This document shows, in pieces, positions 3,584 through 25,248 of a DNA stretch of 64,000 nucleotides. Below the pieces are notes generated by a model that made no database searches, was not told the origin of the DNA, and saw only the letters and a list, made by a program, of their open reading frames with translations. Source of the DNA: an uncultured Rickettsiales bacterium (GTDB lineage Bacteria > Pseudomonadota > Alphaproteobacteria > Rickettsiales > UBA1997); the NCBI GenBank assembly GCA_905478165.1, contig CAJQHK010000001.1:2754-66753 (forward strand), in the 5' to 3' direction. Within the stretch, counting starts at the first letter, position 1. Every line of letters starts with the position of its first letter. Both the position numbers and the translations under genes were made by a program.

Positions 3584-5384
3584 TCTTTTCCTCTTCCAAC
3601 AACTCAAATTGCTTATTATATAAATTAGAATATTCGCCATTTAATTTTAATAATTCCTCATGATTTCCTTCTTCAACGATTTTACCATTCATAACTACAC
3701 ATATTTTATCAGCATGCATAATGGTTGATAATCTATGAGCTATCACGACAGTAGTTTTGCCTTTCATTAATTTATTTAGAGCATTTTTAATAAGATTTTC
3801 TGAAATTGGATCAAGAGCTGAAGTTGCCTCGTCAAGCAGTAAGATTGGTGCATTATATAGAATTGCCCTAGCAATTGCAATTCTCTGCCTCTGCCCTCCA
3901 GACAAAACTACTCCATTTTGTCCAATTTGTGTATTATATTGTTGCGATAAATCTTGAATAAATTCATCTGCCTCCGCCATCTTTGCCGCCTCCATTATTT
4001 GTTTTTCCGTAGCATCTTCTTTACCATATCGAATATTTTCTAATATTGTGTCATCAAAGAGCATAACTTCCTGATTAACAACAGACATAGACCCCCTTAA
4101 TGAATTTAAAGTAAGATCTTTTAAATTGTGACCATCAAGATTTATATCTCCTTTTTTTGGATCATAAAACCTTAGGATCATACTCATGATCGTTGATTTT
4201 CCACCTCCAGAAGGTCCAACCAAAGCAGTTACCTTTCCCTGTTCAATTTTTAAATTAATGCCATTTAAGGCAATTTTATCTTCAATATAATTGAAATAGA
4301 CTTTATTAAAATTAATTTTACCCTTAATTATACCTATTTCCTTAGCATTCTTTTTGTTTTTAATTTTTGGTTTTTGGTCAATAGTGCTAAAATATCTCTC
4401 AGTAGCGCCCAGTCCCAATTGAATTCCCGCATTCATTCCGGAAACTGATTTTAGGGGTTTGTAAGCCATCATCATGGCGGCAAAAAATGACATAAAAGCA
4501 CCCGCCGTCGTTTCTCCGGCAATAACTTGGTAGCCACCATACCATATAACGCAACCTATGCCAACTGAAGACAACATTTCTACCATAGGAGATGAAATAG
4601 ATGACAATCTGGCAATTTTTCTGCCAAGCTTTGTCATATGATCAATTATCTCCCCCATCCTTGTGACTTCAAATTTTTCACAATTATAGGATTTAACTAG
4701 CTTACCATATTGCAAAGAATCATCCATTTGAGATAGAAATTTTTGTGCGATCACCTGGTCGCCAAATGATAAATGTCTTAATTTTTTACCAATCTTGTAA
4801 AGAGGGTAGGCCGCAAGTGGAAAGCCGATAAAGCCAATAATTGCCAAGGCAAAATTTTGATAAAACATAACCCCAATTAAGACAAATAAAGTAATTAATT
4901 GTTTAAAAAATCCATTTATGGCAATTGAAATACCACCTGTAATTCTACCTATATCCATCATAATCCTGGCAATCATATTGCCTGATGAGGTGCTATTTAA
5001 AGTAGAGATGTCGGAATGTATATAATGCTTATAAAGTTCCTTTCTTAAATCGGCGGTAATGTATACGATAACATAATTCATTAAAACTACCTGAAAATAA
5101 GTAGAGGCACCTTTTATGATTGCTATTATAATGATGGCAATTGGTATTAATAATAACATTCTTTTGTTGCCCTGTACCAATACTTCATCCAATGCTGGCT
5201 GAATTAAATATGCTATAGTACCAGTAGTTCCAGCAATTATAAACATAAAAAAAACTGACAGAAAAAATTTAAATTTATAAGGAAAGACATATTCTTTAAA
5301 CAGCCTTTTGGCCAAGTAAAGATTATCCTTATAATCTGGTTTTTGAGAGTTAGGCTTTTTATTGTTAGTAGCTACTTTTTTCAT
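3576..5384 (-). CDS. ABC exporter, fused permease/ATPase (MsbA/ABCB lipid-exporter architecture)
   Basis: 602 aa. The N-terminal half is a multi-helix membrane domain. The C-terminal NBD has Walker A GPSGGGKST, signature LSGGQRQR and Walker B LLLDEATSALD. Confidence 0.8.
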   Translation of the reverse strand: MKKVATNNKKPNSQKPDYKDNLYLAKRLFKEYVFPYKFKFFLSVFFMFIIAGTTGTIAYLIQPALDEVLVQGNKRMLLLIPIAIIIIAIIKGASTYFQVVLMNYVIVYITADLRKELYKHYIHSDISTLNSTSSGNMIARIMMDIGRITGGISIAINGFFKQLITLFVLIGVMFYQNFALAIIGFIGFPLAAYPLYKIGKKLRHLSFGDQVIAQKFLSQMDDSLQYGKLVKSYNCEKFEVTRMGEIIDHMTKLGRKIARLSSISSPMVEMLSSVGIGCVIWYGGYQVIAGETTAGAFMSFFAAMMMAYKPLKSVSGMNAGIQLGLGATERYFSTIDQKPKIKNKKNAKEIGIIKGKINFNKVYFNYIEDKIALNGINLKIEQGKVTALVGPSGGGKSTIMSMILRFYDPKKGDINLDGHNLKDLTLNSLRGSMSVVNQEVMLFDDTILENIRYGKEDATEKQIMEAAKMAEADEFIQDLSQQYNTQIGQNGVVLSGGQRQRIAIARAILYNAPILLLDEATSALDPISENLIKNALNKLMKGKTTVVIAHRLSTIMHADKICVVMNGKIVEEGNHEELLKLNGEYSNLYNKQFELLEEEKND

Positions 5385-9138: not shown

Positions 9139-11946
9139 GTGCCGCATTTATATAAATTAATTTTTGATAAAAATCACTACATCTCGTTAAAGCCTTTTAT
9201 ATCCTTTGCTATTAAAGTCATTTTTCTTCTTTTTCTTCTTTTTGTTATTTCTGCATCTTATTTTATCTTACTAATCAGTGTCGAACAAAAATCCTTTCCC
9301 TTCCTAGTAAATAAAATAGAATCGAAGATTAAAAACTATATTGATAAAAATGACAATATTATCATAGAAAATATTAGGGTTGAGCAGGATAATTTTAATA
9401 TTATTGCATATATTGACAATGTTAAGTTTAATCATTCTAAATTATTTCTTGAAGTAGCTGAGGCAAAAGTTTCATTTTCCATTTTTGACTTAATATTATT
9501 CCAAACCTCAATCAAAAACCTTGATATCAAGACTATAAACATAAAATATCATTCTTATTTACCAGAAAGAGTAAATGATGATGGGGATGCAATTAAACTA
9601 CATGATATTTTACCTAACTTACTTGATTACGACGTAGAGGAGGCGAATATACACGCGTTAAATGTAACTTTTTTAAAAAAGGATCAAAATAATAGGGACT
9701 TTCAAATTAACGATATTAATCTGAGTATTAAGAATAATAAACTCAAATTATCATCTAAAATTAATTTCGAGGATTATAAGGTTAATCTTAAAAGCCGATG
9801 TTATATTCAAAATAAAAATTCTATTTGCAACGCACTATCTTCCGAAATTAACCCTGAAATAATTTCTAAATTTTATCCTAAATTTTCTAAAATATCTGGC
9901 ATAAAAACTAAAATATCTAGTAATATTACCATTAAATCAAATAATAAGGAGGATGATATTTCTTTCATTCTTTACAGTGATAAGGGCGAAATAAATAATA
10001 AAAATATTTTCCAAGACAAGGTTACTTTTACCGACCTAACTCTTCATGGTGACTATAAATTTAATACAAAATCATTAAATGTTACAGATTTTTCTCTTAA
10101 TTTCATGAATGATATTGAATTTCGTGGCAATATAGAAATTGATAATATTTTAAAACCCAAATTCAATATAAATTTATTTTTAAATAATTTAACAAGAGAG
10201 GATTCGCCTAAATTGTGGCCCGTAATAATTCCAAAAGATGATAATATTAAAAAATTACTCCTCAGACATATAAAATCTTTTTACATAAGTGATTCTCATA
10301 TATTAATGAAGTTTAGTGAAGGAAGGCTTCTTGATATTGATGCTAAATTCAATTTTACAGACGCATCCATCCTCTATGATAGAAGATTTCCAGCGATATA
10401 TGATGTATCTGGAAAAGCCTATTTTAACAAAAAGTCAATGAGAATAAACATTGACAAGGGTAGCCTATTGAAGAGTAAAATTAAAAATGCTGAAATTATT
10501 ATCAAAAACTTCCATAAAGAAAATACGCCCCTAGAAATTAGAGGAAAAGTTACAGGAAGGGCTGAAGATTTAATAAAGCACGTTAACTACAAATCCTACT
10601 TTTCAAAAAATATAGGGAATTATATTAATGGATCCGCCATCAGTTACTTTGATTTGCTAATACCAATTAAAAAAAAATTACAGTTACGAGATATTTATTT
10701 ACAAATTTATTCAGCAATTATGAATATTAACAATAGTTATATTGGTAAAAGTTCTAATTTACGTGTAAACCTTACTAAAAATGTAAACGATAATATATTT
10801 CGAACTCATATTGACCTAACAAAATCTCAGATTGATTTTAAGCCACTATCCATATCTAAACAAAAAAATATTAATTCTACCCTATCACTAAATATTAGTC
10901 CTGAAGGAAACTTACTGACATTTAGTGACATAAAATTTAAATTACAAAACCAAAATTTACTAACTGGATTTTTCTTAATCAACCTAGATAACAAAAATAT
11001 TCAAAACATAAAACTAACCCACCCAGATTTTTCTTTATTATATGACTCAAACCACGAAAAATCTTATCGTAAATTAGATTTAAAAGGCAAAAAACTTGAT
11101 CTAAATAAATTAAAATCAATTTTGCAATCCGGCCAAGGCGATAGTAAAAAATATAAAATTAATGACATAGAAATTATTTTAGATCAATTAATTTTGGCAA
11201 ATAATATAGAGTTGCACGATATTGATGTCAGTATTAAATGTCATGGATCGGTATGTATTAATAGCTTTATTGAAGCAAAGAAAGGTGGTAAGGAAATTGT
11301 TAATATCGATTTTCATCCCTATCCAATAAAAAAAACAACAATAATTAATGGCAAAATATCAGATATATCATCTATAATGAAGGGTGTTAATATTTATGAC
11401 AAAATAACAGATGGAGACCTAGTAATTAGAGCTAAAATTTTTACAAAGGATAATGATGCTATTATATCTGGAGAAGCATATAATAAGAAGGCATATAAAA
11501 TATTGAAGGGTGAGTTGGTGCAAAAAATATCAGAAGACGGATCTTTCTCTAGAATAAATGATCAATTAATCTTAGCAGATCAGATAAAATTTGAAAAAAT
11601 GCACTCTAAATTTAACATTAAGAATAATATTTTAGAAATAGAAAAATTTATTATTAGTAATAATTATCTAGGCGTTACTGCCAAGGGACATATTGACATA
11701 AATAACAACAAGATAGATATAAAAGGCTTGGTTGTTCCAGGATATTTAATTAACGGGTTGTTTGGCATAGGGGAATTACCTATTATTAAATATATTTTTC
11801 CTATTTTGGTCGGAGAAGAGGGTGGTGGCATATTTGCCGGAAGGTATCGGTTAGAAAAAAATCCAGATATTGATAATAAACTTAGATTTAAATTAAATAA
11901 AAGTTCTGTATTTGCTCCCGGCGCAATTCGTAACTTCTTGGATTAG
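9139..11946 (+). CDS. large envelope protein, AsmA/YhdP-like (assignment by eye)
   Basis: 935 aa with a GTG start and a single N-terminal TM helix (VIFLLFLLFVISASYFILLI). A long Asn/Lys/Ile-rich region follows. The C-terminal block GLVVPGYLINGLFGIGELP...GGGIFAGRYRL resembles AsmA-family C-termini. Confidence 0.5.
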   Translation: MPHLYKLIFDKNHYISLKPFISFAIKVIFLLFLLFVISASYFILLISVEQKSFPFLVNKIESKIKNYIDKNDNIIIENIRVEQDNFNIIAYIDNVKFNHSKLFLEVAEAKVSFSIFDLILFQTSIKNLDIKTINIKYHSYLPERVNDDGDAIKLHDILPNLLDYDVEEANIHALNVTFLKKDQNNRDFQINDINLSIKNNKLKLSSKINFEDYKVNLKSRCYIQNKNSICNALSSEINPEIISKFYPKFSKISGIKTKISSNITIKSNNKEDDISFILYSDKGEINNKNIFQDKVTFTDLTLHGDYKFNTKSLNVTDFSLNFMNDIEFRGNIEIDNILKPKFNINLFLNNLTREDSPKLWPVIIPKDDNIKKLLLRHIKSFYISDSHILMKFSEGRLLDIDAKFNFTDASILYDRRFPAIYDVSGKAYFNKKSMRINIDKGSLLKSKIKNAEIIIKNFHKENTPLEIRGKVTGRAEDLIKHVNYKSYFSKNIGNYINGSAISYFDLLIPIKKKLQLRDIYLQIYSAIMNINNSYIGKSSNLRVNLTKNVNDNIFRTHIDLTKSQIDFKPLSISKQKNINSTLSLNISPEGNLLTFSDIKFKLQNQNLLTGFFLINLDNKNIQNIKLTHPDFSLLYDSNHEKSYRKLDLKGKKLDLNKLKSILQSGQGDSKKYKINDIEIILDQLILANNIELHDIDVSIKCHGSVCINSFIEAKKGGKEIVNIDFHPYPIKKTTIINGKISDISSIMKGVNIYDKITDGDLVIRAKIFTKDNDAIISGEAYNKKAYKILKGELVQKISEDGSFSRINDQLILADQIKFEKMHSKFNIKNNILEIEKFIISNNYLGVTAKGHIDINNNKIDIKGLVVPGYLINGLFGIGELPIIKYIFPILVGEEGGGIFAGRYRLEKNPDIDNKLRFKLNKSSVFAPGAIRNFLD

Positions 11947-12262: not shown

Positions 12263-12940
12263 ATGAAAACAGCAATAATAATTTTTCCAGGCTCAAACTG
12301 TGACAAGGACGGTTTAGATGGTCTTAATAAAATTAGTAATAATATACAACAAATTTGGCATAAAGAGACTAAATTAGATGATAATTTAGATCTAATTTTA
12401 ATTCCTGGAGGCTTTTCTTACGGAGACTACTTAAGAAGTGGTGGTATTGCGGCTAACTCTAATATCATGCCCGAAATTATTCGCCTAGCAAACAAAGGAG
12501 TCAAAGTAATTGGCATTTGTAATGGCTTCCAGATTCTAACTGAAGCAGGATTATTAGATGGTGCTTTAATGAAGAATGTGGGGGCAAAGTTTATTTGTCA
12601 AAATACTTATTTATCTTGTCAAAATCAAAAAACCAACTTTACTAACAAGATTAATAAAATTATTCAGATTCCAATTGCGCATATGGATGGCAACTATTAC
12701 TGCTCTGATGATGTTTTAAAAAATCTTGAAGATAACAATCAAATTGCTTTTAAATATTGCAATAAAAATGGAGAGACTAAGAATGAATTCAATCCTAACG
12801 GCTCGAAAGAAAATATTGCCGGTATTTTTAATAAAAATAAAAATATTTTAGGTATGATGCCGCATCCTGAAAGGGCAATAGATAAAGATATTAATGGTAT
12901 TGATGGTATGCTATTGTTCAATTCCTTATTAAATAAATGA
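12263..12940 (+). CDS. purQ: phosphoribosylformylglycinamidine synthase, glutaminase subunit
   Basis: Class I GATase motifs: FPGSNCD, nucleophile elbow GICNGFQ and C-terminal MPHPER. The start is moved from the track ATG at 12230 to ATG 12263 (MKTAIIIFPGSNCD). Confidence 0.85.
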   Translation: MKTAIIIFPGSNCDKDGLDGLNKISNNIQQIWHKETKLDDNLDLILIPGGFSYGDYLRSGGIAANSNIMPEIIRLANKGVKVIGICNGFQILTEAGLLDGALMKNVGAKFICQNTYLSCQNQKTNFTNKINKIIQIPIAHMDGNYYCSDDVLKNLEDNNQIAFKYCNKNGETKNEFNPNGSKENIAGIFNKNKNILGMMPHPERAIDKDINGIDGMLLFNSLLNK

Positions 12941-14568
12941 TGAATAACAAAACAAAATTTATTTTTATTACTGGTGGCGTTGTATCATCTCTTGGAAAGG
13001 GGTTAGCATCCGCTTCTATTGCCGCACTTTTGCAATCTCGTGGTTATAAGGTGCGTCTTAGAAAATTAGATCCATACTTAAATATTGATCCGGGTACAAT
13101 GAGTCCGACTCAGCATGGCGAGGTCTTTGTTACTGAAGATGGAGCTGAAACCGACCTAGATTTGGGTCATTATGAAAGATTCACCGGAGTTAATGCTAAG
13201 AAATCAGACAATGTTACTGCTGGACAAATTTATCAAAAATTACTAAATAGAGAAAGAAAAGGAGATTACCTTGGAAGAACAGTTCAAGTTATCCCCCATG
13301 TTACTGATCTAATTAAAGAGTTTATCTTAAATGATCTTGACGATATTGATTTCGGATTATTCGAGATTGGTGGCACCGTTGGAGATATTGAGGCTTTACC
13401 ATTTTTTGAAGCTATTAGGCAAATTGGTTTTGAATATGGTAACTCTAGATGCGCCTTTGTACATTTAACCTTATTGCCATATATTGAGTGCGCTCATGAG
13501 TTAAAAACCAAGCCAACTCAACATTCTGTTAAAGAACTTAGATCAATAGGTATTAATCCTAGCATCTTATTATGTCGAGCTGAAAGACCTGTTGATGAGT
13601 CCATAATTGATAAAATAGCCAAAATGTGCTCCGTCAATAAAGACTACGTCCTGTTGGCACCGAACGTTGACAACATCTACAAAGTACCAATGATTTACCA
13701 TGATCAGGGTTTGGATGGAAAAATTTTAAAATATTTTAATCTAGACTCCAAGGAGCCGAATTTAAAAAAATGGCGAGATATTTTTTCTTCGATTGACAAT
13801 AAGGAGGGGCAGGCAATTATTGCAATTGCAGGTAAATATACTGAATATAGTGATTCTTATAAATCTTTGTTGGAGGCGATTGACCACGCCTCAATTTACC
13901 ACAAAATTAAGATTAAAATTAAATGGGTTAATATTAGGAATTCTAATAAAAATAAATTAAAAGATTTAGAAAATATTGATGCAATTTTGGTTCCTGGTGG
14001 TTTCGGTGATGATGGGATGGAGGGCAAGATTGCCATAGTTAACTACGCTAGGAAAAATAAAATCCCTTATTTAGGAATTTGTCTTGGTATGCAAATGGCT
14101 TTATTAGAATTTGCCAGAAACAAAGCTGGAATTAGCAACGCCGTATCTAGTGAAAGTGAATCATCTGATGGCACTAAACTAATTTCCATGATGCATGAGT
14201 GGGAAAAGGGTGGTAAAAAGCAAGAACAAGGGGCGGATCTTGGTGGCACCATGCGTCTCGGCTCATACCCCTGCAATATACATAAGGACACATTAGCCTA
14301 TGAAATTTATGCCGAAGAAAGAATTTCTGAAAGACATCGTCACCGCTATGAGGTAAACATTAATTACAAAAAGGACTTAGAAGATGTTGGACTGATATTT
14401 TCTGGAATGTCACCCGATGGTAAGCTTGCTGAAATTATTGAACTTAAAGATCATCCATTTTTTATCGGCGTCCAATTCCATCCAGAGTTAAAATCTAAGC
14501 CATTCTTACCTCACCCGATTTTCTTAAAATTTATCAAAGCTGCTAAAAATTACAAATCTAAGCAGTAG
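12937..14568 (+). CDS. pyrG: CTP synthase
   Basis: 543 aa with FITGGVVSSLGKG, a C-terminal GATase domain (GICLGMQ) and HRHRYEVN. It overlaps the purQ stop by 4 nt. Confidence 0.95.
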   Translation: MMNNKTKFIFITGGVVSSLGKGLASASIAALLQSRGYKVRLRKLDPYLNIDPGTMSPTQHGEVFVTEDGAETDLDLGHYERFTGVNAKKSDNVTAGQIYQKLLNRERKGDYLGRTVQVIPHVTDLIKEFILNDLDDIDFGLFEIGGTVGDIEALPFFEAIRQIGFEYGNSRCAFVHLTLLPYIECAHELKTKPTQHSVKELRSIGINPSILLCRAERPVDESIIDKIAKMCSVNKDYVLLAPNVDNIYKVPMIYHDQGLDGKILKYFNLDSKEPNLKKWRDIFSSIDNKEGQAIIAIAGKYTEYSDSYKSLLEAIDHASIYHKIKIKIKWVNIRNSNKNKLKDLENIDAILVPGGFGDDGMEGKIAIVNYARKNKIPYLGICLGMQMALLEFARNKAGISNAVSSESESSDGTKLISMMHEWEKGGKKQEQGADLGGTMRLGSYPCNIHKDTLAYEIYAEERISERHRHRYEVNINYKKDLEDVGLIFSGMSPDGKLAEIIELKDHPFFIGVQFHPELKSKPFLPHPIFLKFIKAAKNYKSKQ

Positions 14569-14622
14569 AAAAAATTATTATAATTGCTATAATACCGGTT
14601 ACCAGATTTGCACTATACATAT

Positions 14623-14794
14623 AACCCCCACCAAAATCAAAGATTTTGACTCCCCCTTAGGGGGAGTTGATAATGTGCCGAGACTTACTTTCGACTTAAC
14701 TCCCCCTTAGGGGGGGGTTGATAATGTGCCGAGACTTACTTTCGACTTAACTCCCCCTAAGGGGGAGTCAAAATCTTTGATTTTGGTGGGGGTT
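14623..14794. repeat. modular nested palindrome (perfect 44-nt inverted arms enclosing two 33-nt direct units and three G/C hairpins)
   Basis: 14623-14666 is the exact reverse complement of 14751-14794. The unit ttgataatgtgccgagacttactttcgacttaa occurs at 14667-14699 and 14718-14750. The hairpin ctccccc-tta-gggggag occurs at 14650-14666, 14700-14717 and 14751-14767. Confidence 0.9.
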
Positions 14795-14865
14795 GCGTCA
14801 AGTTTAGTATAATAAAAGATTGATTTTTTCTCAAATAGAAAATATCATTAATTCTTCAAAAATTA

Positions 14866-14941
14866 GGGGTTGTAGCTCAGCGGTTAGAGCAGGATGCTCA
14901 TAACGTCTTGGTCGTAGGTTCGATTCCTACCAGCCCCACCA
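14866..14941 (+). tRNA. tRNA with CAU anticodon (elongator tRNA-Met, or tRNA-Ile2 if lysidine-modified)
   Basis: 76-nt cloverleaf. Acceptor stem is GGGGTTG/CAGCCCC, and the D arm is GCTC-AGCGGTTA-GAGC. Anticodon arm is GGATG-CTCATAA-CGTCT, T arm is GTAGG-TTCGATT-CCTAC, and CCA is encoded. A G1:C72 pair and the lack of a GGG/CCC anticodon stem argue against an initiator. Confidence 0.9.
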
Positions 14942-14956
14942 CTGAATTAAAAAACT

Positions 14957-15982
14957 CTATTCGATTGATGGCAGAACATTTTCTGCAATCTTTCCGAACT
15001 CCATAGCAATTTCTGACGATTTATCCTTATAACAAATAGGAATTCTATCATCATTTGACTGATTAATCTCTTGATTAATGGCGATTTCACCTAAAAAATC
15101 AATTCCACGCTCTATAGCCAATTGTTTTATGCGGTTTTTACCAAAAATATATTTCTTTTGGCCCCTCACCTCTTCCAAGTAAGACATATTTTCTATAATA
15201 CCAGATATTTTAATATTAAGCTTTTCATACATATCTATTGATTTCACTAAATCAATAACAGCAATTTGAGAAGGGGTAGACACCAAAACTACCGAATCAA
15301 TTGAAAATTTTTGCATCATGGTTAAGTGAACGTCACCGGTTCCAGGTGGCAAGTCAACAACCATAAGATCGACACCTTCCCAACGAGTTCCGTTTATCAT
15401 TTGATCTAAAGTTTTAGTAATCATCGCACCCCTCCATATTGCAGCCGATTCTTTTTCAAACAAAGACCCCATTGAAATAATTTTAATACCATAATTTTCT
15501 AAAGGAATTATTTTTCCATCTTTAAAATCTGGCTTTTCATTGAGATTCATAAGGTAAGCAATAGATGGCCCATAAATATCCGCGTCCACTAAGGCAACCT
15601 TAAATCCTATTCTGCTAAAACTAATTGCCAAATTTGTAGCGATCGTTGACTTTCCAACTCCACCCTTAGCAGAAGAGATCGCGATAATCTTTTTTACCCC
15701 AAAAACCTTACCAACTTCTTTTGTTGATTGTAGTTTTTTATCAGAAGTTAAAAAAATTAATATTTTTAAAGGAATTTTATCTTTAATTCCAGAAATTATG
15801 GTTTTCTCCAATTCTTTTGCCGCTTCTTTAGTAAGATCGTGACCTGATATATCAAGAAAAACTGATATATTATCTTTTTTGATTAATATTTTTGGATTAA
15901 AAGCAAATGATTGCAGCTTTTTATCTAAAAAAATTATTTGATTAAATATTGCCAAAACGGCTTTTTCCTTAAAAAATTTCAT
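14957..15982 (-). CDS. Mrp/ApbC (NBP35) iron-sulfur cluster carrier ATPase
   Basis: Deviant Walker A SAKGGVGKST, DADIYGPS and DLPPGTGD. The ORF-track start at 16027 is trimmed to MKFFKEK because the first 15 codons are supplied by the terminus of repeat copy A. Confidence 0.85.
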   Translation of the reverse strand: MKFFKEKAVLAIFNQIIFLDKKLQSFAFNPKILIKKDNISVFLDISGHDLTKEAAKELEKTIISGIKDKIPLKILIFLTSDKKLQSTKEVGKVFGVKKIIAISSAKGGVGKSTIATNLAISFSRIGFKVALVDADIYGPSIAYLMNLNEKPDFKDGKIIPLENYGIKIISMGSLFEKESAAIWRGAMITKTLDQMINGTRWEGVDLMVVDLPPGTGDVHLTMMQKFSIDSVVLVSTPSQIAVIDLVKSIDMYEKLNIKISGIIENMSYLEEVRGQKKYIFGKNRIKQLAIERGIDFLGEIAINQEINQSNDDRIPICYKDKSSEIAMEFGKIAENVLPSIE

Positions 15983-23649: not shown

Positions 23650-24416
23650 CAAAAATTAGCTGGTACGATATAAAAACGAAACTCAAACATATTCTTAGGC
23701 TTTTTTTCTATAGCCCTATGATGCAAGAGATTTTGGCCTATATTATAGTTTTTTACATGAAACTAATCTATTTCACTAGTAAAAAACAATATAAGAATTT
23801 AAACATCTTCCTTAGTTCCCTCGAAAAGGGTGAGGCGGTTATAATTTGCTCTTGGCATAATACAATCATGATAATGCCACTTTTGATGTTCGAGATGAAG
23901 AAAATTAAAAATCGCAAAGAAATGAACAGTCTATCTTCAAAGCATGGAGATGGCAAGATTGTTGGCAATGTTATGGATAAATTTGGATTTATCAATATCT
24001 CAGGATCCTCAAATAACAAAAAAGGTCGCGGCATCACTATTTATGATTTAAAAAAAATTATTAAAAATCTCAGGAAGGGCTATAGTTTGGCAATTACTCC
24101 TGACGGACCAAGAGGCCCTCGATATAAAATCAACAGTCAAGTAGTAAATATTGCCAAATTATCTGGCGCAAAAATTATACCATCTAGCTGTAGCATATCT
24201 CGATCAATTCGCTTAAATAGTTGGGATCGATTTGTCTTTCCTTTACCATTCTCGACATTATCCTATTATTTTGATCAAAAAATTGCAATTTCTAAACATA
24301 TAAAAAAAGAAGAAATAGAAAATAAAAATTTAGAAATTGAAAACAAACTCAACAAATGTCGAGAGAGATTAGATTTTATATTTAAAACTTGCCAAACAAA
24401 ATCAAATAAGGTATAA
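23646..24416 (+). CDS. DUF374-type lysophospholipid acyltransferase family protein
   Basis: 256 aa with an N-terminal TM helix and the motifs CSWHN, SSKHGDG and ITPDGPRGP, which are typical of DUF374 proteins. Confidence 0.6.
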   Translation: MTKISWYDIKTKLKHILRLFFYSPMMQEILAYIIVFYMKLIYFTSKKQYKNLNIFLSSLEKGEAVIICSWHNTIMIMPLLMFEMKKIKNRKEMNSLSSKHGDGKIVGNVMDKFGFINISGSSNNKKGRGITIYDLKKIIKNLRKGYSLAITPDGPRGPRYKINSQVVNIAKLSGAKIIPSSCSISRSIRLNSWDRFVFPLPFSTLSYYFDQKIAISKHIKKEEIENKNLEIENKLNKCRERLDFIFKTCQTKSNKV

Positions 24417-24424
24417 TTACTATC

Positions 24425-24770
24425 GTGCCCTGCACTATGGTGATAAACGTGATTTAGAATAGATGTTTTGCGGACTCGGGGGCGGTACCCGACATCTCCA
24501 CCATTGTCGACTACTTAAAATTAATTATGGGGATGAAATAGCTTCGACGCGCACAGTAAAAAAATTATTTTTACCCGACAAGATACAGTCGGTTTAATTT
24601 AGCAATAAATTAAATATTAGTTCAAAACAAATAAACGCAAAAATAAACTTTGCTAATGATAATATTGCTCAAAATGAGGATGTTAGGTTAAAAGCAGTAG
24701 CTTTCGCTTAATATCTAATATTATCGGGGTTTTGAGGTTCTCCTGTCAACAGAAAAACCTCGCTCTTTTA
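24425..24770 (+). ncRNA. ssrA: two-piece (circularly permuted) tmRNA
   Basis: The acceptor piece ends ...GCGGACTCGGGGGCGGTACCCGACATCTCCACCA at 24503. The coding piece starts GGGGATGAAATAGCTTCGACG at 24529. GGGGATG pairs with CATCTCC, including the G3:U pair that confers Ala identity. The tag frame at 24652-24711 encodes ANDNIAQNEDVRLKAVAFA then a stop. A terminal hairpin gaggtt...aacctc with a T-run lies at 24734-24770. The outer boundaries are approximate. Confidence 0.8.
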
Positions 24771-24786
24771 ACTTAAAAGTACTTTG

Positions 24787-25248
24787 ATGAAAGATTTTAT
24801 AGGTTACGGCCAAATCATAGAAGATGCGATGAGGAGTGCTGTCAAAAGCGTTCTAACAAAAGTTCAAGATAGTGGGTTACAAGGTGAGCATCATTTTGTT
24901 ATATCATTTCTAACAAACGACAAAAATACCAAAATATCAACAATACTAAAAAAAAAATTTCCTAATGAGATGGTCATAGTAGTCCAGCATCAATTTAAAG
25001 ATTTGAAAATTAATGATGATAATTTTGAAATCTTTTTAAGTTTTGATGGTAACTATGAAAAATTAGTTGTTTCTTTTGCCTCAATCACCTCTTTTTCCGA
25101 CCCCTCAATGAATTTTGGCGTTAAATTTAATTTCAATATTGAGGGAGAAATTCATAACGGCACGACAGAAGAAAAATCAGAAAAATCCAACATAGACCTA
25201 TCTCAAAAAATTATATCGCTAGATGATTTTAGAAAAGGTCATGATTAA
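24787..25248 (+). CDS. sspB: ClpXP adaptor SspB (alphaproteobacterial type)
   Basis: The motifs GEHHFVISF, MVIVVQHQFKDLKI and SFSDPSMNFGVKF match the SspB-alpha fold pattern. The C-terminal IISLDDFRKG resembles the ClpX-binding tail. Confidence 0.8.
   Translation: MKDFIGYGQIIEDAMRSAVKSVLTKVQDSGLQGEHHFVISFLTNDKNTKISTILKKKFPNEMVIVVQHQFKDLKINDDNFEIFLSFDGNYEKLVVSFASITSFSDPSMNFGVKFNFNIEGEIHNGTTEEKSEKSNIDLSQKIISLDDFRKGHD

Follow-up and report, generated by a model that had tools for sequence, protein, structure and literature searches.

The 172-nt element at positions 14623-14794 of the window (the whole 64,000-nt stretch of DNA analysed here), which lies in the spacer between pyrG and a tRNA-Met gene, belongs to a repeat family dispersed over the genome of its uncultured rickettsial host. 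We regard it as probably a non-autonomous copy of a selfish "triplex-motif doublet" family that was acquired horizontally together with a gene of the DUF559 nuclease family. A triplex-motif doublet is understood here as two inverted terminal modules, each built from three parts (third block, variable hairpin, pyrimidine-loop-purine GC hairpin), placed around a core of tandem (unit + GC hairpin) repeats. Little doubt attaches to the family as such, to the mirror rule obeyed by its third block, to the core being a variable number of tandem repeats (VNTR), to the absence of the element from a congener, to the distribution of the modules or to the embedding of the DUF559 gene in them.

The palindromic, modular symmetry pointed out in a preliminary description of this DNA was borne out by inspection of the sequence and by a repeat finder. 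The element consists of perfect inverted ends of 46 nt (14623-14668 and 14749-14794, 100% complementarity), that is, arms 2 nt longer than first described, and of two 51-nt tandem internal repeats (14652-14702 and 14703-14753, 92% identity), and it contains the GC hairpin three times at spacings of 50 and 51 nt. Folded as single-stranded DNA, it reached -64.1 kcal/mol, while shuffled versions gave -21.1 +/- 3.2 kcal/mol (z = -13.6) and none of the 200 shuffles was equally stable, which places the symmetry far beyond chance. The position between pyrG and the tRNA gene was also described correctly, with the correction that the coordinates give gaps of 54 nt (pyrG stop to element) and 71 nt (element to tRNA-Met) instead of 55 and 72 nt.

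The window corresponds to C1:2754-66753 of the source genome (G000, a 1.2-Mb draft of 31% GC), in which about 13 loci are assembled from the same modules. Their order is third block CCCCCACC, sequence-variable hairpin, hairpin ACTCCCCC-NNN-GGGGGAGT, n x (unit + hairpin) and the inverted end. A complete element is made of a terminal module on the left (T>, v, H), n x (unit + H) and an inverted one on the right (H, v, <T). The CTCCCCC-NNN-GGGGGAG hairpin is present in approximately 60 copies on contigs C1, C4, C12, C15, C18 and C25, and approximately 27 terminal modules of the form CCCCCACC-v-GACTCCCCC-NNN-GGGGGAGT were counted on six contigs. The statement that no second copy was visible therefore holds for the window, as contig C1 carries a single copy, and fails for the genome. 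The genome-wide search proposed at that time for both the hairpin and the unit found the hairpin in many copies and the unit confined to pyrG, the 31-nt unit of this locus having no other site in G000. Internal units measure 24-50 nt and are uniform inside one array and different from locus to locus, with array periods of 43-51 nt. The copies sit among housekeeping genes (ruvC-ribF, rsmA, der-argH, trmB, hisI-metE), and judging from their neighbourhoods those other than the pyrG copy are not linked to tRNA genes. Many are found at contig ends or in scaffold gaps, which shows that the elements break assemblies.

The G-rich strand of the terminal module reads 5'-ACTCCCCC-loop-GGGGGAGT-(v)-GGTGGGGG-3', and GGTGGGGG read backwards gives GGGGGTGG, which is the purine arm GGGGGAG with A replaced by T. 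In a purine-motif intrastrand triplex the third strand is oriented antiparallel to the purine arm and forms G.GC and T.AT triplets; by these established triplex rules, the geometry predicted from the module sequence is that of a purine-motif intrastrand triplex. The rule was examined in an independent set of 80 metagenomic loci encoding small DUF559 proteins, where 175 of the 181 pyrimidine-loop-purine hairpins were accompanied by a mirror third block (at most one mismatch, within 45 nt). Among the 134 arms that are not themselves mirror-symmetric, the third block matched the mirror better than the direct sequence in 75 cases and the direct sequence better in 4, with 55 ties, and the match averaged 0.97 (mirror), 0.89 (direct) and 0.84 (shuffled sequences). 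This test is conservative, since nearby copies can only raise the "direct" score. Hairpins of the opposite polarity, with the purine arm first, were rare at the DUF559 loci (7 vs 98). The blocks also covary, as locus L184 combines the hairpin CCCCCTC/GAGGGGG with the third block GGGGGAG and locus L154 combines TTTCCCCTC/GAGGGGAAA with AAAGGGGAG. The v linker is 15-21 nt long, and 69 of 101 distinct v sequences from modules of this type contain a perfect stem of at least 6 bp (41 stems), compared with 0.5% of shuffles; its structure is conserved while its sequence is free. Since a hairpin joins its own two ends, v can serve as a short "structured loop".

The BoxC, PIT and TMECO repeats of bacteria have been known for about 30 years. 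Like the element, they have three blocks in succession on one strand, the pyrimidine and purine arms with the loop between them being followed, after a linker, by a G-rich mirror block (Holder et al. 2015, PMC4666352; Hoyne and Maher 2000 cited there), the three blocks being ACTCCCCC, GGGGGAGT and GGTGGGGG in our case, and their third block has T or A opposite A, as the mirror rule of the element has it. Both groups are G/C-rich, strictly intergenic, multi-copy, often arranged as inverted pairs and linked to local instability (in G000, about 13 loci on six contigs with inverted terminal modules), no transposase has been found for either, and both adjoin a DUF559 gene, which is ycjD in E. coli K-12. 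The known repeats fold as triplexes in vitro and mark unstable loci, and their main study reported no mobility genes and mentioned neither ycjD nor any nuclease (PMC4666352). Whereas the TMECO triplex was demonstrated in vitro, that of the element is predicted, with indirect support from the mirror covariation. The geometry agrees with the published TMECO/BoxC/PIT pattern, CCCTCNCCC-N3-6-GGGNGAGGG-N3-GGGNGAGGG (PMC4666352). In its exact form, with 9-nt blocks and loops of 3-6 and 3 nt, this pattern does not describe the element, which has blocks of 7-8 nt and a variable hairpin of 15-21 nt as second loop. With a hairpin in place of that loop, such elements are missed both by the published pattern and by the ITxF search (loops of 1-6 nt). 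Further differences are the tandemly amplified (unit + hairpin) core held in the doublet and the host, a streamlined marine alphaproteobacterium with an AT-rich genome (31% GC).

The number of units was found to change within the species. Other metagenome contigs encoding a letter-identical PyrG protein carry two units, as the window does (L185), or three (L186, the internal hairpins of which have G-runs of 7 and 8), and at a further site (C4 site c) one unit in G000 stands against three in a TARA contig (L182, approximately 98.4-99.6% nucleotide identity). Several hairpin loops switch between TTA and TAA in contigs of the same species, which amounts to hairpin inversion, and upstream of the hisI neighbourhood whole terminal modules are repeated in tandem 2 to 4 or more times, with scaffold gaps inside the arrays. 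No element-free allele was detected within the species: all same-species contigs found (3 for pyrG, 10 for hisI-metE, 2 for rsmA) bear elements and vary in copy number only. Since the unit number varies at the pyrG locus, the "perfect symmetry" is one momentary state of a VNTR. It is very probable that the element is a non-autonomous, selfish, foldable repeat of the BoxC/PIT/TM kind, the core of which would gain or lose copies through slippage or through unequal exchange involving the identical GC hairpins.

Comparison of the pyrG-tRNA spacer in related genomes, which had been recommended in the preliminary description, showed that G004 (same genus, PyrG 84% identical) keeps the synteny without the element, pyrG being followed by a 208-nt AT-rich spacer and tRNA-Met. 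The promoter-like region directly upstream of tRNA-Met is common to both genomes. A functional role of the structure was said there to be undermined if relatives lacked it with unchanged pyrG or tRNA expression, or if it proved to belong to a common known REP family; the structure is absent from the G004 spacer and belongs to a dispersed repeat family, and both findings count against such a role. No insertion boundary or target-site duplication was seen at pyrG; the G004 spacer is unalignable beyond the promoter-like region of the tRNA gene. The pyrG locus is rearranged in G002 and has no tRNA gene there in the remaining relatives. It was also observed that pyrG of G002 is followed, where the tRNA gene would be, by an element of approximately 180 nt with long inverted ends (GCCCCCTAAAATTCAGACCATTAATT..., L115:340-520).

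The exact module gave 21 matches in G000 and none with the reversed control sequence, and it was found in 1 of 126 genomes of the bacterial family (0 of the 125 others), a figure that covers the exact module type only, since the strict DNA pattern undercounts variants such as the modules of L179. Sequence variants of the module are present in other genera of the family. The exact module is abundant in Pseudohongiella-like metagenome-assembled genomes (MAGs) of the Pseudomonadales (Gammaproteobacteria) and further carriers are a gammaproteobacterium from a sponge, one Bdellovibrionales MAG and one unclassified MAG. Complete doublets in these genomes have the structure T-v-H-unit(23-31 nt)-H-v-T. 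This patchy distribution across classes suggests horizontal acquisition.

No transposase gene was found next to any copy in G000, where a DUF559 gene is the only linked gene. It is the sole PF04480 (DUF559) gene of the genome (C4:4284-4667, outside the window; 127 amino acids, 110 bits vs a cut-off of 20.6) and is bracketed by two elements of the repeat family. The element-DUF559-element block (C4:4043-5181, L114) stands in place of the final codons of rsmA, the spacer and approximately 190 nt at the 5' end of hscB, the remainder of which looks degraded. As hscB is intact at the same place in G004 and G001, the block represents an insertion at the cost of a gene. DUF559 is absent from all four congeners of G000. 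When the G000 protein was compared with 22 extracted DUF559 proteins, the best matches were two proteins of Pseudomonadales MAGs (47% and 44%), and both of their genes have a complete doublet of the G000 type 45 nt downstream. The closest database homologues (65-69% identity) show the same flanking architecture with covarying blocks. Of 16 small DUF559 genes encoded by other genera of the family, 9 or more have three-block elements of different sequence on their flanks, and hairpins of the mirror-block type adjoin the gene at approximately 70 of the 80 metagenomic loci (34-72% GC). At distances of up to 150 nt from the DUF559 open reading frame (ORF), hairpins numbered 4.22 per kb, compared with 0.34 per kb elsewhere, a 12-fold difference (50 loci with the ORF located). 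Usually the gene stands between hairpin-third block on one side and third block-hairpin on the other, and the reverse layout is rarer.

The G000 protein carries the conserved D / E-x-D / H residues of PF04480 (D54, E65, D67, H71) in addition to scoring above the gathering cut-off, and D54, E65, D67, H71, D77 and R80 are invariant in the DUF559 alignment. The DUF559 profile matched PDB entry 3HRL (E = 8e-35) and the domain of the homing endonuclease I-Bth0305I (3R3P, E = 7e-5), and by homology the protein is a Vsr-fold PD-(D/E)xK nuclease, not a transposase. EDxHD homing endonucleases (I-Bth0305I, PDB 3R3P; PMC3239194) and Vsr have the catalytic fold in common with DUF559, and the former show that this fold can serve a selfish DNA element. 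In contrast to the EDxHD enzymes, which reside in group I introns or inteins and bear NUMOD DNA-binding domains, DUF559 is free-standing, approximately 120 residues long and bracketed by triplex-motif repeats.

Several further observations were made on the units and arrays. Across loci and genera with different GC blocks, units share a core such as GAGYTCGRTYTAA or CTCGAT near the 3' end, which may be a recognition site or reflect mere common ancestry. A linker of approximately 50 nt (TTGAGA...AAGTAAATYTAARGCTAAYAGTTT...) lies between <T and T> of neighbouring elements (G000 C4:270-326, 4190-4238, 4826-4874 and 10059-10107), and its right half was also found after the DUF559 stop codon; it may be what a DUF559 cassette left behind when its ORF was lost, or else the promoter region of the gene (TTTAAA-16-TATAAT). 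Some DUF559 loci (L217, L197, L192) are enclosed by long arrays in which 10-20 or more triplex-motif hairpins recur approximately every 35-45 nt and which resemble the 7-hairpin array at G000 C4:9698-10070.

A comparable association exists in E. coli K-12, where ycjD (167 bits, PF04480) is followed by a canonical TMECO at a distance of approximately 180 nt and has a degenerate TMECO at the stop codon. The last approximately 45 nt of ycjD are duplicated just downstream (L270:5330-5480), and the stop codon now in use comes from a degenerate BoxC-like block; from the sequence it looks as if a repeat had inserted into the 3' end of the gene. Of 5,426 complete E. coli genomes, 3,343 have an intact fabI-ycjD-sapF locus. 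Four strains were searched directly: the ycjD-positive MG1655 and 55989 contain 23 and 29 exact TMECO, while the ycjD-negative IHE3034 and O157:H7 Sakai gave 3 and 15 BoxC-like BLAST matches. The remaining counts, for strains of which the ycjD status is mostly unverified, were taken from the published supplement (PMC4666352), which lists 1-2 TMECO in B2 strains, 11 in O157:H7 and 19-30 in A/B1 strains; by ycjD status, these counts are 19-30 in positive strains and 1 and 11 in the negative IHE3034 and Sakai. The contrast fits a nuclease that helps to amplify or maintain the repeats.

In REPIN/RAYT systems, doublets of repetitive extragenic palindromic (REP) sequences are accompanied by a single-copy Y1 transposase gene that is itself flanked by REPs. 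The family described here resembles them in that a single-copy enzyme gene is bracketed by a foldable repeat which is also dispersed as inverted intergenic doublets, in that the repeat type is uniform per genome and in that enzyme and repeat type covary. It differs in having a Vsr-fold PD-(D/E)xK nuclease instead of an HUH transposase, no Y1 gene, a repeat of other sequence and fold, and genomes that hold many repeats without the enzyme. A mechanism can be proposed in which the family entered the lineage horizontally along with the DUF559 gene, the nuclease would recognise the folded module and nick or cut there, and repair and recombination would make or homogenise the copies, giving a REPIN/RAYT-like layout with the chemistry of a nuclease. 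That the linked DUF559 protein acts on the folded module in this way, with nicks or breaks leading to copying or homogenisation by repair, has in our estimate not quite an even chance. We propose still more tentatively that YcjD-type DUF559 nucleases might be the cognate enzymes of BoxC/PIT/TM repeats across bacteria, recognising a folded single strand of hairpin and mirror third strand (with a structured hairpin as the connecting loop in the present case), and that the pyrG doublet, being without a gene, would be maintained or copied in trans through the single DUF559 gene of the genome, the two having been acquired together horizontally. A literature search found no paper linking DUF559 or ycjD to TMECO repeats; the nearest published hint is the enrichment of "DUF559 domain-containing protein" (odds ratio 14) among predicted inversion targets (PMC9881135).

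Several results weigh against these proposals. DUF559 is absent from seven repeat-bearing Pseudomonadales genomes, five of them complete chromosomes, when searched with the Pfam model and with our own profile, and a search at the DNA level revealed no DUF559 homology in them either. Since the initial PF04480 control set had missed E. coli (YcjD, 167 bits), the DUF559-negative genomes were re-searched with the own profile, which recovered its positive control. One DUF559-free genome, G142, has approximately 50 or more repeat copies. The nuclease is thus dispensable for persistence of the repeats, and the causal arrow could be reversed. To our knowledge, PD-(D/E)xK nucleases have no strand-transfer activity. 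The commonest gene layout, H<T-gene-T>H, makes the doublet T>H-unit-H<T no simple internal deletion of it, while L179 and L237 show a layout matching the doublet polarity. Neither a target-site duplication nor a clean empty site was found, the G004 spacer being diverged and the other sites rearranged. The site of the DUF559 gene and doublet in Pseudomonadales is occupied by DUF559 in two MAGs, by an aldehyde dehydrogenase gene in five genomes and by a gene for a small membrane protein in two (L171, L279-L282); as a hot spot of gene content between conserved flanks, it is uninformative as an empty site. The E. coli contrast, finally, represents few independent lineages.

Alternatively, the repeats might spread without DUF559, by replication template switching at foldable DNA or through an enzyme from elsewhere, DUF559 being a separate selfish gene of the homing type that inserts into or beside repeats or stays there via homology or insulation. 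Such independence would agree with the seven DUF559-free genomes, with Sakai having 11 TMECO and no ycjD, with DUF559 having a distant relative in the catalytic domain of a genuine homing endonuclease (PMC3239194), with the variable hot spot that houses the Pseudomonadales cassette and with the usual presence of one to a few DUF559 genes despite many possible repeat sites. It is nevertheless considered rather unlikely, because dispersed modules match the sequence type found at the DUF559 gene where both are present, protein similarity follows module type across bacterial classes, repeats occur within the genus only in the DUF559-bearing genome, and ycjD-negative B2 strains have 1-2 TMECO compared with 19-30 in ycjD-positive ones. 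A device specific to this locus, that is, a bidirectional terminator or insulator, or an RNA-processing platform parting the pyrG mRNA from the tRNA-Met precursor, is improbable. The element does lie exactly between two transcription units, has a strong fold potential, would yield on transcription a perfect 46-bp duplex that is a plausible substrate of RNase III given its established specificity, and creates a promoter-like TTGACT-17-GATAAT facing the tRNA gene. Against such roles, which the preliminary description had offered, stand the lack of a T-run after any hairpin (a scan of 14400-15000 on both strands found no Rho-independent terminator-like site), the maintenance of pyrG, tRNA-Met and the promoter-like upstream region in G004 without the element, the presence of the same modules at about 12 unrelated loci and the differing unit number between strains. 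Effects on pyrG or the tRNA gene are best regarded as side effects and not as the reason for the existence of the element; if it is transcribed, these may include a block of read-through, a 46-bp duplex cuttable by RNase III and chance promoter-like hexamers.

The comparison with REP sequences or bacterial interspersed mosaic elements (BIMEs), made in the preliminary description, was apt as far as a dispersed, modular, mosaic, intergenic family is concerned and failed on REP identity. Inverted palindromic units with linkers occur in BIMEs, and perfect terminal inverted repeats, here the 46-nt ends, occur in miniature inverted-repeat transposable elements (MITEs). It is, however, very improbable that the family consists of REPs mobilised by a RAYT (Y1 HUH transposase) or is a classical MITE derived from an insertion sequence, as it shows no adjoining transposase and no target-site duplication visible at sites that are diverged or rearranged in relatives, the GTAG-type REP head is missing from its ends (AACCCCCACC and GGTGGGGGTT), and Y1_Tnp (PF01797) gave no match in G000 and seven other repeat-bearing genomes while matching 6 of 14 control genomes. 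Just as improbable are a tRNA-exploiting site of recombination or integration (att-like or cruciform) and a gene for a small structured RNA. The palindromic structure and the nearby tRNA gene would suit them, but the element lies upstream of the tRNA gene and does not overlap its 3' end, the next gene encodes an Mrp/ParA-type ATPase with no integrase or island adjoining, and the absence of tRNA genes beside the other copies likewise contradicts the integration role suggested earlier. The internal units are wholly different among loci, and in Rfam only the tRNA scored; beyond it there was no more than a sub-threshold match, "whalefall-1", the 18.5 bits of which fall short of the gathering score (37) and which was dismissed as a chance hit. 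A CRISPR array was discarded as well, because each array repeats one and the same sequence between its hairpins, with a period of 43-51 nt, and no cas genes are nearby. The BOX elements of Streptococcus pneumoniae have the structure boxA - boxB x n - boxC. They are similar in being intergenic, non-coding and built of two partly complementary terminal modules around a variable number of tandem internal modules, and dissimilar in their unrelated sequence and in having no known mirror third block or linked nuclease gene.

Taken alone, the element is ordinary selfish DNA, and what it adds is a hairpin-as-loop variant invisible to existing triplex searches, population-level copy-number change at a single locus and a clean, lineage-specific co-occurrence of a repeat with a single DUF559 gene. 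Such elements should be recognised as selfish repeats in annotation. If DUF559 nucleases were the cognate enzymes, this would be a second partnership of the REPIN/RAYT kind, one without a transposase; the mirror covariation and the 12-fold enrichment make the DUF559 hypothesis testable in E. coli K-12 (ycjD, 23 BoxC copies). The seven repeat-bearing, DUF559-free genomes limit the partnership claim and provide counter-examples for any model.

Coordinates of the element, its modules and neighbouring features (window positions unless a contig or locus is named; T, third block; v, variable hairpin; H, GC hairpin)
Feature	Position	Strand	Remarks
Left third block AACCCCCACC (T>)	14623..14632	+	bottom strand = GGTGGGGGTT, mirrors purine arm GGGGGAG, A replaced by T
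Left variable hairpin v, AAAATC-AAA-GATTTT + G	14633..14648	+	structured linker from third block to GC hairpin
GC hairpin H1, ACTCCCCC-TTA-GGGGGAGT (pyrimidine arm, loop, purine arm)	14649..14667	+	
Internal unit 1, TGATAATGTGCCGAGACTTACTTTCGACTTA	14668..14698	+	genome-wide search: two matches, both at pyrG locus
GC hairpin H2, ACTCCCCC-TTA-GGGGGGGGT	14699..14718	+	G-run extended to 8
Internal unit 2, exact copy of unit 1	14719..14749	+	(unit + hairpin) = 50/51-nt VNTR
GC hairpin H3, ACTCCCCC-TAA-GGGGGAGT	14750..14768	+	reverse complement of H1
Right variable hairpin	14769..14784	+	reverse complement of 14633-14648
Right third block GGTGGGGGTT (<T)	14785..14794	+	
Single-stranded oligo sequence of module, ACTCCCCCTAAGGGGGAGTCAAAATCTTTGATTTTGGTGGGGG			
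Units with shared core	14668-14698; G000 C4:11940-11966; C25:1458-1482; loci L158, L168, L184		
pyrG (CTP synthase)	12937..14568	+	stop codon 14566-14568; Pfam CTP_synth_N + GATase; upstream neighbour, outside element
tRNA-Met (CAT)	14866..14941	+	downstream neighbour, outside element
Promoter-like site of tRNA-Met, TTGATT-17-TATCAT	14820-14848		outside element; kept in element-free relative G004

Inside the element, the junctions of module and unit (14646-14674 and 14696-14725) yield sigma-70-like hexamers, TTGACT-17-GATAAT (10/12) and TTAACT-18-GATAAT, one per unit and facing the tRNA gene. Elsewhere in the window, a permuted (two-piece) transfer-messenger RNA with the unusual tag AKINFANDNIAQNEDVRLKAVAFA, ending in AFA, was located at 24411-24802.

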